Shown here piece after piece: positions 46,027 through 59,135 of a stretch of DNA of 64,000 nucleotides. Source of the DNA: a phage. The translations under genes and the position numbers were made by a program. Position 1 is the stretch's first letter; the number at the start of each line of letters is the position of its first letter. Under the pieces are notes generated by a model. That model did not search any database. It was not told the DNA's origin and worked only from the letters and a program-made list of their open reading frames with translations. Where the stretch lies: sequence record PZ386973.1. One strand, given 5' to 3'.

Positions 46027-46526
46027 AACAATACTCCTGTGTTGGAAATGAAATAAGTTTTCTTTAGGACTATTCAGAAAGAATAGAACAACTGTTACTG
46101 TCAATTTCTCAACAAATTAATCGCAAATACTGAAGTGGGGTGGCAACTTCCACTTTCACGCTGCGCTGCTGCCTCATTATACCGCACAAATCCTTGAGGA
46201 TGGCCGCTAAGCCAGATTTGCTCACCTAATGCTTCATATACTAGCTCATACTAGATGCAATATAACTTACAGAATCACGTCTCGGTAGTTTTTCACTCCT
46301 CCCATCTCACTTCACAACCACCTCATACTAGGTTGCTTCGAGGCCTTACCAGGGTTCCTATGGGACGCAGATCGCTAAGTATTCTATTAACTATTTGTTT
46401 AAAAACTAACACGTAACAGTTAAAACAACCCTTAATGGGGCAGCCTAACTGTTCCGTATCGCGGATTGTAAACAAGAAAAATTAGCAAAATCAATTTTTA
46501 CTAATGTCTCTCAATTCAATATAAAT

Positions 46527-46555
46527 ATTATATCAAGATTTTGGGCATCCTGCAA
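46527..46555 (-). promoter_or_regulatory. T5-type early promoter with ~500-nt leader before UL9-like helicase gene
   Basis: Minus strand TTGCAG - 17 bp - TATAAT then ATTTATATTGAATTGAGAGAC. Confidence 0.55.
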
Positions 46556-46595
46556 GTAAAATTTTCCGGATGGTGCTATCATTGGTCTTGAGTAC

Positions 46596-46623
46596 GGATA
46601 AAACCGAGCCAAAATGACTCGGT
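46596..46623 (-). terminator. Intrinsic terminator (minus strand) after paralog pair
   Basis: Minus strand ACCGAG-loop-CTCGGT followed by TTTTAT. Confidence 0.55.
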
Positions 46624-46649
46624 AATCAGAGTTCAGCTAATAAAAATCA

Positions 46650-47039
46650 TTAGTCATTTAGGCCAGGAACATAGATCCCAACACGGTTTAATTGTTCTTT
46701 AGCTTCTTTAAGAATATCTGGAGTGTACTCCCAAACATCATCTTCCACCTGTAAAAGATGGGGCGAACAACCATCATCCGGCACACGACATATGGCCAGA
46801 CCACGTGGATGGAACAAAGAGAAATTTAGGGCAACAATCAAGCCCATAGCAGACAATTCATTCCAATCCAATTCCCATTCCCCGGCATATCCAGACAGGA
46901 AAACACCAATGCAGGGATCATCTATTTGCTGCTCCGGAAAAGTGAAGGAGGCTTGTCTTACCCCCAACCAACGTTGTAGTAGCTTCTCCGCACGTCTCAC
47001 CAAACTAGGGTCAATCTGACGCCAATATACTTGTTCCAT
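46650..47039 (-). CDS. Hypothetical protein, paralog of 47049..47477
   Basis: 129 aa; shares ELxxMGLxxALNxxLFxP and C-terminal Y(V/M)(I/V)PGL with the adjacent gene. Confidence 0.6.
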   Translation of the reverse strand: MEQVYWRQIDPSLVRRAEKLLQRWLGVRQASFTFPEQQIDDPCIGVFLSGYAGEWELDWNELSAMGLIVALNFSLFHPRGLAICRVPDDGCSPHLLQVEDDVWEYTPDILKEAKEQLNRVGIYVPGLND

Positions 47040-47048
47040 TCTGCCCCC

Positions 47049-47477
47049 TTAAGCAGTTAAACCTGGGATCATATACCCGAAACGTCGAAGTTTCTGAATC
47101 CCCTCATTTACTTCTTCCGGTGAGTAAGACCAACCATAACGTTCATTAACCTGAAAACCAGGGGATTCACTAGTCTTATAGTTAACAACGAGGCGATGCT
47201 TAGCAGGCATAAACAGCTTATAGTTTAACGCAAAAACTAAGCCCATTTCATCTAACTCTTTCCAGCCAACAATTTCTTCAAGACCCTCCTCTACCTGAAC
47301 AATTAAACCAATACAGAGGGCCTCATCAATATCATCTTTAAAAGCAAAGGAGATTTCGTTATTCTCACACCATATTTTCAAGGAATTAATAGCCTCATTA
47401 TACAGGCTAGCCGGGAGAGTACGCCAAAAGTTAACCAAAATTGGGTTAGCTTCTTTAGAGAATACATTATTGAACAT
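47049..47477 (-). CDS. Hypothetical protein, paralog of 46650..47039
   Basis: 142 aa; same motif pattern as neighbour. Confidence 0.6.
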   Translation of the reverse strand: MFNNVFSKEANPILVNFWRTLPASLYNEAINSLKIWCENNEISFAFKDDIDEALCIGLIVQVEEGLEEIVGWKELDEMGLVFALNYKLFMPAKHRLVVNYKTSESPGFQVNERYGWSYSPEEVNEGIQKLRRFGYMIPGLTA

Positions 47478-47479
47478 AC

Positions 47480-47986
47480 TTACACCTTAAATTGTTGTAA
47501 GGATTTACACATTTCAAGATCCGGGCTAAATTCTAGCATATAGCTAACAGCTTTTAAATCTTGAAGATTTATCCCAGTCCTACCGTTGACTATAACTGTT
47601 GGATACTGATACATCATAGCACCAGCATCATCAAGCACACACCAATGTTTGAGCTTATGCTTTTCAACGAAGCGAAGAACAGAATTACCCCTAGATAATC
47701 CACCACCAGTAAAATCCGTTGTACCAAGAAAACGATCGATAAGACCTAATCCGGTCATAATTCGAACGTTCTCCATTTCATTTTTAACAGAAAACCACGA
47801 AGATACCCCAACAATCATTATTGAAGAGGGACGAATAAAATCCTGAAAAGCCTTGAGAAGTGGCTTAAAAACCCAATCACTTCCGAAGAAGATCTTTTCA
47901 TCATCCGGCGCATGGTGGTGCGAGATGCTCGAATTGAGCACCCCATCAATATCTAGAAAAATAACTGGAGTATTACTTATTTCCAT
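47480..47986 (-). CDS. HAD-superfamily phosphatase-like protein
   Basis: N-terminal VIFLDIDGVLNS (hhhhDxDG(V/T) motif I); 168 aa. Confidence 0.65.
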   Translation of the reverse strand: MEISNTPVIFLDIDGVLNSSISHHHAPDDEKIFFGSDWVFKPLLKAFQDFIRPSSIMIVGVSSWFSVKNEMENVRIMTGLGLIDRFLGTTDFTGGGLSRGNSVLRFVEKHKLKHWCVLDDAGAMMYQYPTVIVNGRTGINLQDLKAVSYMLEFSPDLEMCKSLQQFKV

Positions 47987-48155
47987 TTTTGTTCCTTTCT
48001 AAGAACGTATCATACTCAACCGTATCAACATATATGACACCATAGTCATCGGATTTATAGTCCATTTCCCACAGCTCACAGCGATAACACCAACTACCAT
48101 CCGCCCATACAAATATATCATCGGGATGTGTATATACAGATTTAACTATAGACAT
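47973..48155 (-). CDS. Hypothetical small protein
   Basis: 60-aa ORF with ATG start, overlapping both neighbours in operon. Confidence 0.45.
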   Translation of the reverse strand: MSIVKSVYTHPDDIFVWADGSWCYRCELWEMDYKSDDYGVIYVDTVEYDTFLERNKNGNK

Positions 48156-48970
48156 ATTTGTTTCCCTGGCATATAAGGTCTACCCTCTAAATGAGCTTCC
48201 ACACGAGCAATAAAATCAGGATCACTGAAAGCATCTACCGCACCTTTACTCCAGTAAGGGACCCCACGTTCTTCCAGCTGGTACATCTCACTACGAGTCA
48301 TACCTTGATAGCCGGGCTCCGCTGCTAGAGCACTATCATAGTAGTTAACAACCATAAGTTTCGCAGCAGTCAAATTAAGAACAGGAAATAATTCCCAGTA
48401 GAAGTTAATTACTTGGTTAGAGCAACCAACTACAATAATCATATCTTGACTGGTAATACTGTCAAAAACATTATACATTTCTGCGTATGCAGGAGCATGC
48501 TCTCCAAAGAAGATTACATTAGGTTTAGCCCATTTATAATCATCCGGATCGATAGAACTGTATCCTACATCAATAATCCGTTTATTGCTACTATTGTATC
48601 TATCAGCTACAACAACCTCTTTTAAATATCCGTGAATGTGCAGAATGTCACTATGTGGAACGCCAGCACGCTCAATAAGGTCATCAACGTTGGTAGTCAA
48701 GTTTACTACTTGACCAGGGTATTGTTTATGCCATTCACCAATACGCAAATGCGCAAGATTGGGTTCGACAGTTTTTAGCTCTTCACGACGCTTGTTATAA
48801 AACATATGGGTTTTATGGTAAAAATTACCACGAAAGGCATGAATATTACATACTTCTTCTAGATCATAATCATCCCACAATGCTTTACCACTAGCAGTAT
48901 CAGTACGAAAAGCTCGTACACCACTTTCAACGCTCAAACCTGCACCGCTAATAATAATTACTCTACGCAT
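48146..48970 (-). CDS. Sir2-like (sirtuin family) NAD-dependent deacylase / ADP-ribosyltransferase-like protein
   Basis: GAGLSVESGVRAFR (cf. GAGISxESGIPxFR), TTNVDDL (cf. TQNIDxL), HG, PNVIFFGE, IVVGCS; no CxxC zinc ribbon evident. Confidence 0.75.
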   Translation of the reverse strand: MRRVIIISGAGLSVESGVRAFRTDTASGKALWDDYDLEEVCNIHAFRGNFYHKTHMFYNKRREELKTVEPNLAHLRIGEWHKQYPGQVVNLTTNVDDLIERAGVPHSDILHIHGYLKEVVVADRYNSSNKRIIDVGYSSIDPDDYKWAKPNVIFFGEHAPAYAEMYNVFDSITSQDMIIVVGCSNQVINFYWELFPVLNLTAAKLMVVNYYDSALAAEPGYQGMTRSEMYQLEERGVPYWSKGAVDAFSDPDFIARVEAHLEGRPYMPGKQICL

Positions 48971-49184
48971 TTTTCACCTGTTCTCTGAAGTTTTGCCCAA
49001 TGCTGTCTAATAGCTCAGCTAATTCTTTATTGCCTTTCTCCATTAAGGTATTAGCAATAACTTCTAGCATAGTAGCACAGGATTCAACACCATCCTTATA
49101 GCCAGTTTCCCACTGCTGCATTAATGCATTTTCCAAAGCGGCATTTAAACCATTATCTGGTAGCATCGGCTTCGAGAATGCCAT
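48963..49184 (-). CDS. Hypothetical protein
   Basis: 73-aa ORF with ATG start in Sir2 operon. Confidence 0.5.
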   Translation of the reverse strand: MAFSKPMLPDNGLNAALENALMQQWETGYKDGVESCATMLEVIANTLMEKGNKELAELLDSIGQNFREQVKNA

Positions 49185-49356
49185 AAAGTTTCTCCTCTAG
49201 TTCCATAACACGATTTTCATAAGAGGCACGCAACTTTTCAATTGCCAGCGCACGCACTGTAACCTCATTAGAATTAATAGCTAATTGGGCCAGGTCTTCT
49301 GTTTCCATACGTCCATTGTAAATTAAGCGATATTTAAGATGTTTTACGTTTTTCAT
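49153..49356 (-). CDS. Hypothetical protein
   Basis: 67-aa ORF with ATG start in Sir2 operon. Confidence 0.5.
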   Translation of the reverse strand: MKNVKHLKYRLIYNGRMETEDLAQLAINSNEVTVRALAIEKLRASYENRVMELEEKLYGILEADATR

Positions 49357-49365
49357 TCTTGTTCC

Positions 49366-49647
49366 TTAGTTCTGTACTGTAAATTTATTCTTATCACAGT
49401 AAGCATAATAATACCCATACATACGATAAATTTTCACAGCCTTAGTAGACCCCTTCGATTCTTCATAATCAATCCAGAGCCACTTGTCTTTACCTACATA
49501 ATGTACCCGAAACTTCTTAACTTTCTTATCATTCCATGTTGCAACAACACGACGATAATCAAATCCGCCCAACCAATCTAGAGCCTTACGTTCTTCACTA
49601 GGCTCTCCAAGATGGGAGACATCTACTTTAGGAAGCAATTCGCTCAT
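49366..49647 (-). CDS. Hypothetical protein
   Basis: 93-aa ORF, first gene downstream of promoter 49676..49704. Confidence 0.55.
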   Translation of the reverse strand: MSELLPKVDVSHLGEPSEERKALDWLGGFDYRRVVATWNDKKVKKFRVHYVGKDKWLWIDYEESKGSTKAVKIYRMYGYYYAYCDKNKFTVQN

Positions 49648-49675
49648 AGCTTTCTCCTCTCAAATTTATAAATCT

Positions 49676-49704
49676 ATTATATATAAATTTTTGGCTGAAA
49701 GCAA
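49676..49704 (-). promoter_or_regulatory. T5-type early promoter of the Sir2-like operon
   Basis: Minus strand TTGCTT - 17 bp - TATAAT then AGATTTATAAATTTGAGAGGAG. Confidence 0.6.
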
Positions 49705-49746
49705 ATAAAATAAAAGCCAGGTCGACTAGCAACCCGGCTGATTAGC

Positions 49747-55528: not shown

Positions 55529-56674
55529 ATGACTACTTTACTAAACCTGAATTGGGACCATACTAACGCTGACCTTTTCCTGGGAGATTCTCTCGGTGTC
55601 GCAGATTATGTACGCGTAGCACATCCAGAACTAGAACGTCTGGCACTTCTGCAACGCTCTCAATTTTGGACTGAAACTGAAATCAGTCTGGAAGCAGATA
55701 AGAAACAATGGCCTAATCTCCCACGTGAAATTCAGGAAATTACACTCCTGAACTTAGCATGGCAGACTCAAACTGATTCCTTTATCAGTCGTGCCCCTGA
55801 AGCAGCTATTATGCCGCTTGTAAGTCGTCCAGAATTGGAAGGAATGTTAAAGCAGTGGAGCTACTTCGAAGACCTGCATAGTCGTGCTTATAGTAATATT
55901 ATTCGTAATGTGTTGACTGACCCAGCAGAATTTATTGATTCTGTAACTAAAAACCAAGAAGCATTCGCACGAATCGCTGATTCTGTTGAACTATTCGATG
56001 AACTGTACCAGTTAGGTCAGTATTTCATTGCAGTACGCGATCATCGTGGCGACAATACTTATCCAGAAACTGAGTTCCCTGAAGTTAAACGTGAAACTCA
56101 GGCTAAACTATTAGACGCTTACTTTGCTATCTATGGTCTGGAAGCAATGCAGTTTTACGCATCATTTGCATGTACCTTTGCATTAGCAGAGAACGATATT
56201 CTGCAAGGTATTGCTAAAAATCTGCAATTAATCGCTAAAGATGAAGCTCTGCACACTCAGATGTCCAAAGCAATCATCCAGATTATGTTCCAGCAGTTTG
56301 ACAAAGACCTGGTGGATGAAGCAGTGGCTAAAGCACCAGCACAGCTCCTGAAAACTCTGAAAACTGAAATTGAATGGGGTCATTTCATTTTCAAAGGTCG
56401 TAGTCTGATTGGCTTGAATGCAGAACTTCTAGAAGAATATCTGTACTTTGTGGGGCGTAATGCATTTATGCACATCGGTGTAGAATGGCCTAGTCACTTA
56501 CCAGTAATCACCAAAAACCCTATTCCGTGGATCATGAACTGGTTGGATACTACTTCTCTACAGCCTGCTCCGCAAGAAATCCAGATTGGTGCAGCTTACC
56601 GTGTAGGTCAGGTAACTGAGACCTCTACGGATACCCTGAAAGATCTGGGTAATGAATTTGGAGATTTCTTATGA
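55529..56674 (+). CDS. nrdB: Ribonucleotide reductase class Ia small subunit
   Basis: 381 aa immediately downstream of nrdA with own promoter; R2-type ferritin-like fold motifs. Confidence 0.88.
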   Translation: MTTLLNLNWDHTNADLFLGDSLGVADYVRVAHPELERLALLQRSQFWTETEISLEADKKQWPNLPREIQEITLLNLAWQTQTDSFISRAPEAAIMPLVSRPELEGMLKQWSYFEDLHSRAYSNIIRNVLTDPAEFIDSVTKNQEAFARIADSVELFDELYQLGQYFIAVRDHRGDNTYPETEFPEVKRETQAKLLDAYFAIYGLEAMQFYASFACTFALAENDILQGIAKNLQLIAKDEALHTQMSKAIIQIMFQQFDKDLVDEAVAKAPAQLLKTLKTEIEWGHFIFKGRSLIGLNAELLEEYLYFVGRNAFMHIGVEWPSHLPVITKNPIPWIMNWLDTTSLQPAPQEIQIGAAYRVGQVTETSTDTLKDLGNEFGDFL

Positions 56675-58659: not shown

Positions 58660-59135
58660 TGTCGGTTTTCCACATTTACACAGATGGTGCTTGTAAGTCT
58701 AACCCAGGTCCAGGTGCTTGGGGTTTTATTGTCTATGATGATAACGACGATCGTTTAGGTTCTAAATCGGGTTATAGTCCTAAAACTACAAATAATGAGA
58801 TGGAACTCACAGCTATTGTAGAAGCTCTACGTTGGTCTGTTAAAAAAGATAATAGACCAATTGCTATCTATACTGACTCTGCTTATTGCAAAAATGGCAT
58901 GGAAAGTTGGATGTTTTCTTGGCAAAGGAAAGGCTGGAAGAAAGCAGATGGTGAAGTTCCTCTTAATCTAGAACTTTGGCAGGAAGCATTTAGATTAACA
59001 CAGCAGTATATTAACTTTCATAATACTAACCCTACCTTTATTAAGGTTAAAGGACATTCTGGTATTAGTGGTAATGAAGCTGTAGATGCCTTATGTAATA
59101 CAGTTATTACTGAAGCTGAAATGGCTGAGATGTAA
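58659..59135 (+). CDS. rnh: Ribonuclease H (RNase HI-like)
   Basis: HIYTDGACKSNPGPGAWG, TNNEMELTAIVEAL, IYTDSAY, GHSG..NE.VDALC catalytic DEDD pattern. Confidence 0.85.
   Translation: MSVFHIYTDGACKSNPGPGAWGFIVYDDNDDRLGSKSGYSPKTTNNEMELTAIVEALRWSVKKDNRPIAIYTDSAYCKNGMESWMFSWQRKGWKKADGEVPLNLELWQEAFRLTQQYINFHNTNPTFIKVKGHSGISGNEAVDALCNTVITEAEMAEM

Follow-up and report, generated by a model that had tools for sequence, protein, structure and literature searches.

A zinc-ribbon-free sirtuin and its gene partners in a T5-like phage operon: a possible route to NAD-dependent healing of RNA ends

Why should a phage carry a sirtuin gene in one operon with genes for a small phosphatase and two paralogous DUF7415 proteins? 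The question is raised by eight minus-strand genes lying between positions 46,596 and 49,704 of a 64,000-nucleotide (nt) stretch of phage DNA (sequence record PZ386973.1; the whole stretch is called the window here). A sequence-only reading of the window had described these genes as a possible host-takeover or counter-defence module linked to nicotinamide adenine dinucleotide (NAD), centred on a Sir2-like protein and a phosphatase of the HAD family, and had treated the module as unexplained. The module is real but already known: it is annotated in phage T5 (T5.100-T5.107), and interpretations of it were published in 2016 and 2022 (Skliros et al. 2016; Iyer et al. 2022). Its conserved core consists of a phage sirtuin without the zinc ribbon, a small overlapping open reading frame (ORF), usually a HAD phosphatase of the Swiss Army Knife (SAK) type which is probably capless, and two DUF7415 paralogues. 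NAD-dependent healing of RNA ends is the best-supported reading of this core and one that we hold tentatively; it proceeds from the observed fold, residues and gene contexts to a chemistry and substrates proposed by analogy.

Skliros et al. (2016; PMC5107563) described the zinc site as missing in the sirtuins of KVP40-like phages and proposed a deacetylase role, with activation of acetyl-CoA synthetase by the phage sirtuin. Iyer et al. (2022; PMC9503650, section 3.7.3) delineated a distinct clade of phage sirtuins with three types of gene neighbourhood and predicted for them a KptA/Tpt1-like activity which strips 2'-phosphates from RNA. In type 3, with phage SP15 as the prototype, the sirtuin gene has an adjacent gene for a SAK-like HAD; types 1 and 2 (jumbo phages; V5 and Mydo) include, in addition, RNA ligase, cREC, kinase, MazG, 2H, Nudix and PIN genes. 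The relevant passages of that paper do not discuss the DUF7415 pair or the small ORF which follows the sirtuin gene (o5; the small ORFs are numbered here by their place in the operon). Our additions to this picture are modest. In Demerecviridae, it is o5 and the DUF7415 pair, not the HAD, that constantly accompany the sirtuin, and the T5-like phages are without the ligase, kinase and cREC which make RNA repair a coherent interpretation in other lineages.

The phage sirtuin and its missing zinc ribbon

The sirtuin gene (48146..48970, minus strand) encodes a protein of 274 amino acids (aa) which is orthologous to T5.102 and belongs to phrog_2162. Profile searches and the predicted structure agree that it is a true member of the Sir2 family. 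The Pfam profile PF02146 (SIR2) matched it with an E-value of 3.5e-24 and 86.2 bits against a cut-off of 24, over profile positions 1-178 of 180. The best match by sequence in the PDB was E. coli CobB (1s5p; 7e-18, about 25% identity). Structure prediction, which had been proposed along with profile searches in the sequence-only reading, gave an AlphaFold2 model with a pLDDT (predicted local distance difference test) of 87 and a Sir2 fold, and the best Foldseek match of this model was again CobB 1s5p (E 5e-17, TM score 0.84). The fold search returned sirtuins only, and the best matches by sequence and by fold were class III deacylases, namely E. coli CobB, the Archaeoglobus Sir2 proteins and SIRT5. 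Membership of the Tpt1/KptA family was indicated neither by Pfam, which gave SIR2 only, nor by the fold search.

The residues required for NAD-dependent catalysis were examined in an alignment of 37 members of the phage clade, reaching down to 55% identity. The Rossmann motif GAGxSxxxGxxxFR is present as GAGLSVESGVRAFR, and its residues G9, A10, G11, S13, S16, G17, F21 and R22 are invariant in all 37 members; so are F57, Y58, R61, R62, N94, D96, H113, G114, K149, P150, F154, E157, G182, S184 and N209. H113, G114, N94 and D96 align with the IHMHG and TQNIDNL motifs of CobB, and a KPxVxFFxE loop and a GxS motif are also invariant. The other sirtuin motifs quoted in the sequence-only reading (TTNVDDL, HG and PNVIFFGE) were found in the translation together with GAGLSVESGVRAFR, and the loss of the catalytic His or Asn, which that reading had named as a ground for giving up its proposal, was not observed: H113 and N94 are invariant and aligned with their counterparts in CobB. 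Since the NAD-binding and catalytic residues are all invariant across the clade, an NAD-linked function of the sirtuin is very likely.

A further conserved element is the segment FYNKRR, which aligns with FYNARR of CobB. It contains the invariant Tyr-x-x-Arg dyad Y58/R61, which we take to be the equivalent of Y102/R105 in SIRT5. In CobB and SIRT5, the Tyr/Arg dyad binds the carboxylate of succinyl-lysine.

The Cys4 zinc ribbon, in contrast to CobB, is absent. There is no cysteine in residues 114-147 of the window protein, and in all 37 members the segment from HG to KPNV (114-149) is devoid of Cys ligands. The only frequent cysteine columns of the clade are C41 (the sole invariant one), position 148 (14 of 37) and C183, and the cysteines of CobB align to gaps or to other residues. 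The missing zinc ribbon had been noted in the sequence-only reading for the window protein; the alignment extends this observation and indicates that the ribbon was lost clade-wide. Canonical deacylases build their peptide cleft with the zinc ribbon. Moreover, the V-Y-P strand of Sir2Tm, which binds the peptide, aligns with I-N-F in the phage sirtuin. The score for the NCBIfam CobB equivalog NF040867 was 90.7 bits against a cut-off of 320, and all seven matched NCBIfam sirtuin models, the top ones being deacylase models, remained under their cut-offs.

These features bear directly on the alternative that survives best, according to which the phage protein would be a protein lysine deacylase of the CobB/SIRT5 kind, possibly a desuccinylase, resetting early host or phage acylation, and its gene neighbours would be unrelated to it. 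The nearest relatives by sequence and fold, the deacylase models at the top of the NCBIfam matches, and the invariant catalytic His, Asn and Asp together with the desuccinylase-typical Tyr58/Arg61 all speak for this role, and it has already been published for the KVP40-like sirtuins (PMC5107563). However, the clade has no zinc ribbon, the V-Y-P strand differs and all deacylase equivalog cut-offs were far from being reached. CobB is, in addition, already encoded by the host, and it is RNA-end enzymes, not acyl-metabolism genes, that recur as sirtuin neighbours in three other lineages. We consider the deacylase role unlikely, though it deserves serious attention.

Gene contexts and the healing of RNA ends

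The clade was found by tblastn in 1009 phage records, covering T5-like, V5-like, Mydo-like, phAPEC8-like, KVP40-like and jumbo phages, and the listed homologues were named phage proteins or were located on phage-sized contigs. The sirtuin of SP15, a T5-like Escherichia phage, is 93.7% identical to that of the window, and those of the V5-like phages (Vequintavirinae) and Mydo are 55-62% identical. In Vequintavirinae, the genes run in the order RNA_lig_T4_1 ligase, cREC, Sir2, with an AAA_33 kinase (a polynucleotide-kinase-like ATPase) and a small ORF inserted in Mydo only. The sirtuin gene thus follows the ligase and cREC genes both in Proteus phage Mydo (61% identity) and in Escherichia phage JES2013 (55%), and MazG-like (so named in the record annotation), phosphoesterase and DNA ligase genes lie nearby. 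In the jumbo phage Sharanji, a Nudix gene and then cREC come directly after the sirtuin gene. In Aeh1, a HAD_SAK_2 homologue, a DUF4326-like homologue of NrdA.1 and a single-module DUF7415 protein flank denA-rnlA; the phiAS5 counterpart of the NrdA.1 homologue matches PF14216. The published association of these sirtuins with RNA-repair genes was reproduced here in other phage lineages. In Vibrio phage phi-Grn1 and in phAPEC8, the sirtuin neighbours are mostly hypothetical proteins, save for a recurring DUF7275/DUF7277 protein.

This recurring protein combines DUF7277 and DUF7275 and is encoded 2-3 kb upstream of the sirtuin in phAPEC8 (locus L014, 793-1731) and phi-Grn1 (locus L011, 2737-3495), two phages of unrelated families. 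Neither the window nor T5 (1-80 kb) has a homologue of it.

The second enzyme of the unit is encoded at 47480..47986 (minus strand). It is a HAD phosphatase of 168 aa and the orthologue of T5.105. The sequence-only reading had recognised it by the motif FLDIDGVLNS, which is present in the translation, and the assignment is borne out by PF18143 (HAD_SAK_2; E 2.2e-20, 73.8 bits against 27.5, 138 of 139 profile positions), a family defined as 'HAD domain in Swiss Army Knife RNA repair proteins'. The four HAD motifs LDIDGVLN, SSW, TGGG-x2-R and LDD are invariant in a comparison with five homologues from T4-like Aeromonas and Proteus phages (32-35% identity). Judging by its size, the phosphatase is probably capless; neither sequence nor profile searches of the PDB gave a usable structural relative. 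The gene is conserved in Tequintavirus and Epseptimavirus.

In RefSeq and PHROG-based annotation, this HAD gene is misnamed 'Sir2 (NAD-dependent deacetylase)' (also at L001 5815-6321 and L004 7589-8095). The misnaming can be traced to phrog_18062, which carries the Sir2 name although it was built from the C-terminal half of this protein and matches that half with E 6e-58; as a consequence, many records show two 'Sir2' genes.

The most likely reaction, which is the one predicted by Iyer et al. (2022), would begin with an RNA 2'-phosphate left by the metal-independent cleavage of RNA by a host RNase. The sirtuin would attack this phosphate monoester with NAD+, releasing nicotinamide and leaving the RNA 2'-phosphate ADP-ribosylated. 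The catalytic His would then activate the 2''-OH of the ADP-ribose, and the RNA would be expelled with a 2'-OH, together with ADP-ribose 1'',2''-cyclic phosphate. Such a chemistry would copy the two-step reaction of Tpt1/KptA and also that of sirtuin deacylation. By analogy, the two-step sirtuin reaction may be mapped onto a phosphate substrate, which the invariant Tyr58/Arg61 dyad would bind. The remaining terminal 2'/3'-phosphate would be stripped by the HAD; alternatively, this enzyme would take a phosphate from the ADP-ribose-phosphate by-product. In sum, RNA ends damaged by anticodon nucleases or toxins of the host, whether of tRNA or of other RNA, would be healed early in infection. The phages of the T5 type have about 24 tRNA genes, whose products are potential clients.

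The emphasis of the sequence-only reading on NADase activity and protein ADP-ribosylation found less support. Healing of RNA ends is favoured over NAD depletion or protein ADP-ribosylation because genes for RNA-end enzymes adjoin those of orthologous sirtuins and because the HAD falls in the Swiss Army Knife family. The clade-wide loss of the zinc ribbon, the I-N-F strand and the CobB score under its cut-off are in agreement with an RNA substrate. A defence-type SIR2 NADase was considered and rejected since none of the eight proteins matched a PADLOC defence model at E <= 0.01. A NADase role of any kind is unlikely, given the dependence of T5-type phages on a DNA ligase that uses NAD and the lack of any match to a defence model. 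Of the proposed NAD-linked counter-defence function, the NAD link stands as very likely; counter-defence is plausible by a route other than the one that was stressed, namely by the healing of RNA ends.

Several points weigh against the healing of RNA ends. Homologues of the RNA ligase, cREC, kinase, MazG, Nudix and DUF7275 proteins were found by tblastn neither in the window nor in T5 (1-80 kb), and a complete heal-and-seal pathway is missing in the T5-like phages because they have no detectable RNA ligase, cREC or polynucleotide kinase. Healed ends would, moreover, be lost as substrates for the host ligase RtcB. The HAD is absent in Sugarlandvirus, which retains the sirtuin, o5 and both DUF7415 genes, and in other T4-like phages of Proteus and Aeromonas the HAD_SAK_2 genes have inconsistent neighbours and are not regularly near RNA-repair genes. 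An acidic character, uncommon among RNA-binding enzymes, is shared by the sirtuin clade (median isoelectric point 5.2, n=37), the HAD and the DUF7415 proteins. As stated above, the nearest relatives of the sirtuin are protein deacylases. Genes of one early operon of T5 need not share a function. Finally, literature searches yielded no experiments on phage sirtuins, on the T5 sirtuin and its locus tags, or on the other genes discussed here.

A more far-reaching version of this reading is, in our view, doubtful. In that version, the zinc-less phage sirtuin would not act on proteins and would be the first NAD+-using enzyme of its kind to remove phosphate monoesters from RNA, as an analogue of Tpt1. 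The T5-like phages would possess a ligase-free end-healing or anti-nuclease system, with a capless HAD and two DUF7415 proteins of orphan fold, and DUF7415, as the constant partner, would be a new accessory module which is also found on nucleotide enzymes. If the published prediction holds, RNA phosphates represent a new substrate class for sirtuins, and T5-like, V5-like and jumbo phages share an NAD-dependent means of reversing the RNA damage inflicted by host nucleases. This would bear on the many tRNA-cleaving defence systems described in recent years, and on phage therapy, in which T5-like phages are common components of cocktails.

The transcription unit and its remaining genes

The window derives from a T5-like phage, as judged by the similarity of its DNA. 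The operon region is 94-96% identical to the Tequintavirus genomes of Salmonella phage HMD-7, NBSal003 and others; it matched 532 phage records, and in 211 of these at least 80% of its length was covered. The unit is flanked by nrdD (51624-49747), which encodes the anaerobic ribonucleotide reductase, and by a D5-like replication gene, and T5.100-T5.107 occupy the same position. All eight minus-strand ORFs listed in the sequence-only reading are present, from 49647 to 46650, with intergenic spacing of -32 to +9 nt and a purine run resembling a ribosome-binding site before every start codon.

The upstream boundary is the intrinsic terminator of nrdD (49715..49739, minus strand; 10 pairs, 6 of them GC, and a T-run according to the scan tool), with a folding energy of -15.4 kcal/mol (z -3.9); a terminator is annotated at the same site in T5. 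It is followed by a predicted early promoter of the sigma-70 type, TTGCTT-17-TATAAT (49676..49704, minus strand), which was read from the sequence and overlaps the promoter annotated in T5. Its -10 hexamer is perfect and its -35 hexamer matches at only 3 of 6 positions, which left it under the threshold of the scan tool and uncalled. The promoter is identical in NBSal003 and nearly identical in T5, with both hexamers unchanged. The unit is closed by a predicted intrinsic terminator (46596..46623, minus strand), a 9-bp hairpin ACCGAGUCA/UGGCUCGGU with a 3-nt loop UUU followed by UUUUAU. The hairpin with its U-tract (46623..46603) folds with -13.2 kcal/mol (z -2.7), better than shuffled sequence. 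The terminator sequence is identical in T5; in Sugarlandvirus, a hairpin of another sequence occupies the same position. The T5 reference (NC_005859) already carries the promoter (55708-55782), eight ORFs and the terminator (58952-58976) as annotated features.

A single transcription unit, as read from the conserved promoter and terminator, is well supported. The unit contains 20 promoter-like sites, close to the 19.1 that chance alone would produce, and the best internal candidate (48465..48438) is conserved neither in T5 nor in NBSal003. The bracket of promoter and terminator put forward in the sequence-only reading is conserved and annotated in T5; that the promoter is the single one is a prediction. 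Likewise, the operon can be accepted as one transcription unit, and as one functional module it remains predicted.

Downstream of o8, a 545-nt spacer (46105-46649, minus strand) separates the unit from the D5-like replication gene. It contains a putative promoter, ACTTGCAG...TATAATAT, which hardly varies from T5 to Sugarlandvirus, as well as another site, TTGATT-18-TACAAT. Scans of the operon region and this spacer gave no Rfam match and no notable repeat.

The first genes of the unit are small. The basic protein o1 (49366..49647, minus strand; 93 aa) belongs to phrog_7953, for which no function is recorded, and it gave no match in Pfam, NCBIfam or PADLOC; T5 lacks it, and the unrelated T5.100 occupies its place. 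The gene o2 (49153..49356, minus strand; 67 aa, phrog_5236) is a homologue of T5.101 (89% identity). The acidic protein o3 (48963..49184, minus strand; 73 aa, phrog_5827) was not found in T5, and its gene overlaps o2 by 32 nt and the sirtuin gene by 8 nt. Together with o1, it forms the variable part of the unit. Except for o1 and o2 (isoelectric points 9.3 and 6.6), all proteins of the unit are acidic, with values of 5.6 for the sirtuin, 5.9 for the HAD, 4.75 for o7, 4.6 for o8, 4.35 for o5 and 4.4 for o3.

The orthologue of T5.104, o5 (47973..48155, minus strand; 60 aa, phrog_5116), is a neighbour of the sirtuin gene in those annotated records of Demerecviridae that were examined, Sugarlandvirus included. 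Its start overlaps the sirtuin stop by 10 nt and its end overlaps the HAD start by 14 nt; because these start and stop codons overlap, the sequence suggests translational coupling of Sir2, o5 and HAD. The idea that a CxxC motif in o5 might provide a zinc ribbon to the sirtuin in trans was rejected, as the second Cys is not conserved in Sugarlandvirus.

The window lacks T5.103 (L004 7244-7429), a paralogue of o5/T5.104 sharing a G(T/S)WCYR motif with it. The window sirtuin ends in GKQICL (48146-48170, minus strand), which resembles the end of T5.103, GKQICP. This similarity suggests that a deletion fused the reading frames of the sirtuin and T5.103 in the window.

The variability of the unit argues for viewing it as a mosaic of unrelated early genes which share a transcript and no pathway. 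The conserved set comprises only part of the eight genes: T5 has a replacement for o1 and o3, the window has no T5.103 and Sugarlandvirus has no HAD. Functions are, moreover, mixed in the early operons of T5. However, the order Sir2, o5 and two DUF7415 genes is constant across the genera of Demerecviridae, even at 47% sirtuin identity, and the overlapping codons point to coupled translation of Sir2, o5 and HAD. A mere mosaic is, on this evidence, rather improbable.

The position of the sirtuin gene in an early operon with a strong promoter upstream could suit a mono-ADP-ribosyltransferase acting on RNA polymerase, the translation apparatus or other proteins of the host, in the manner of T4 Alt, ModA and ModB or of SirTM. 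Sirtuins can ADP-ribosylate proteins, as is established and reviewed in PMC9503650, and the annotation of T5 (1-80 kb) contains no gene of the ADP-ribosyltransferase family. On the other hand, the characterised sirtuin enzymes of this kind are paired with a macro domain, and no ORF of the unit contains one. The invariant catalytic His, needed for the second, 2'-OH-dependent step, suggests that the full two-step reaction is carried out, and no context ties the sirtuin to protein targets. We see only a slim prospect for this role.

The last two genes, o7 (47049..47477, minus strand; 142 aa, phrog_2502, orthologue of T5.106) and o8 (46650..47039, minus strand; 129 aa, orthologue of T5.107), had been described in the sequence-only reading as paralogues. 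They are 31% identical, and both match DUF7415 (PF24187; E 1e-34 and 118.9 bits for o7, 1.5e-31 and 108.8 bits for o8, cut-off 27) in two stretches each. Pfam searches of the whole unit thereby confirmed SIR2, HAD_SAK_2 and DUF7415. The fold of the DUF7415 pair is predicted with confidence and matches no solved structure. An exhaustive profile search of 1.84 billion representative proteins found only 160 relatives, most of which are the C-terminal half standing alone (about 65 aa). A few metagenomic relatives (P0205, P0276, P0281) are fused to thymidylate kinase or to a dATP/dGTP pyrophosphohydrolase (PF04447), which hints at a link with enzymes of the nucleotide pool; no full-length fusion of MazG and DUF7415 was found in the phage collection. 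An enzymatic function of DUF7415 is unlikely because the invariant residues are mostly aromatic or hydrophobic, and conserved residues of catalytic type were not seen. For the pair and the small ORFs, a role in binding or as adaptors is the most likely one.

Some annotations of DUF7415 proteins appear to be erroneous. The GenBank names 'tail tube protein' and 'exonuclease', given to proteins of the pair (46650-47477, minus strand), are supported neither by profile searches nor by the predicted fold. A lone copy of the C-terminal module in Klebsiella phage Roth22 (L005 2992-3249), lying near an RNA ligase and a Nudix gene, is labelled 'anti-CBASS protein acb1', apparently wrongly. This label prompted us to consider DUF7415 as a 2H phosphoesterase related to Acb1, which was rejected since there are no HxT/S motifs and the invariant residues are mostly hydrophobic. 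Lone modules were also noted in other phages: a C-terminal one between nrdD and nrdG in the Klebsiella T4-like phage K65_evo9 (L008 3480-3713), and p318 directly downstream of rnlA in Aeromonas phage Aeh1 (L013 15958-16191).

The least probable alternative is that the module acts on small molecules derived from NAD or ADP-ribose (immune signals, NAD(P) or nucleotide derivatives, with the HAD removing a phosphate) and not on macromolecules: a phosphatase as partner of an enzyme that uses NAD, the DUF7415 fusions to nucleotide enzymes, the DUF7415 module beside nrdD/nrdG and the place of the operon itself after nrdD would fit it, but no PADLOC defence or NADase model resembles the proteins, the DNA ligase of the phage requires NAD+, the small HAD suggests a capless type which, by HAD classification, usually has macromolecular substrates, and no known small-molecule substrate fits.

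Comparison with known systems

The closest counterpart of the unit is T5.100-T5.107, which has the same promoter hexamers, the same terminator sequences and the same place between nrdD and the D5-like gene. The identity to T5 is 91.5% for the sirtuin, 98% for o5, 96% for the HAD, 91.5% for o7 and 95% for o8. The two differ in that T5.100 stands where the window has o1 and o3, and in T5.103, which is missing from the window. The SP15-type neighbourhood, described as type 3 in the section cited from PMC9503650, is the same system, with the same sirtuin clade and an adjacent SAK-like HAD; in the window, the HAD_SAK_2 gene lies one small ORF downstream of the sirtuin. The neighbourhoods of types 1 and 2, as given there, differ by the additional RNA ligase, cREC, kinase, MazG and Nudix genes, which were not found in the T5-like phages.

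With CobB and SIRT5, the phage protein shares the fold of a Rossmann domain and a helical module, the GAGxS, TQN(I/V)D and HG motifs, the PxVxFGE loop and the Tyr-x-x-Arg dyad. It differs from them by the absence of the Cys4 zinc ribbon, by I-N-F in place of V-Y-P and by its restriction to a phage clade. With the SIR2 NADases of defence systems (ThsA, DSR1/2, SIR2-HerA and SIR2-APAZ), it has in common a Sir2-type Rossmann domain which uses NAD+. Defence-type SIR2 domains are likewise devoid of the zinc ribbon. In contrast to them, the window sirtuin matches PF02146 and no PADLOC model, and it is encoded by a phage whose ligase needs NAD+.

The likeness to Tpt1/KptA lies in the proposed reaction, in which NAD+ would be used to remove a 2'-phosphate from RNA by way of an ADP-ribosylated intermediate, with a cyclic phosphate as product, and, in V5-like and jumbo phages, in the company of RNA ligase and enzymes of cyclic phosphates. 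Fold and family are unrelated, and the sirtuin would be a functional analogue only, not one by descent. The T4 pair Pnkp-Rnl1 is similarly a phage answer to host anticodon nucleases and includes a capless 3'-phosphatase of the HAD type. In T4, the kinase and the HAD are combined in one protein and the phage has its own ligase, whereas the T5-type unit comes without kinase and ligase and adds an NAD-dependent enzyme.

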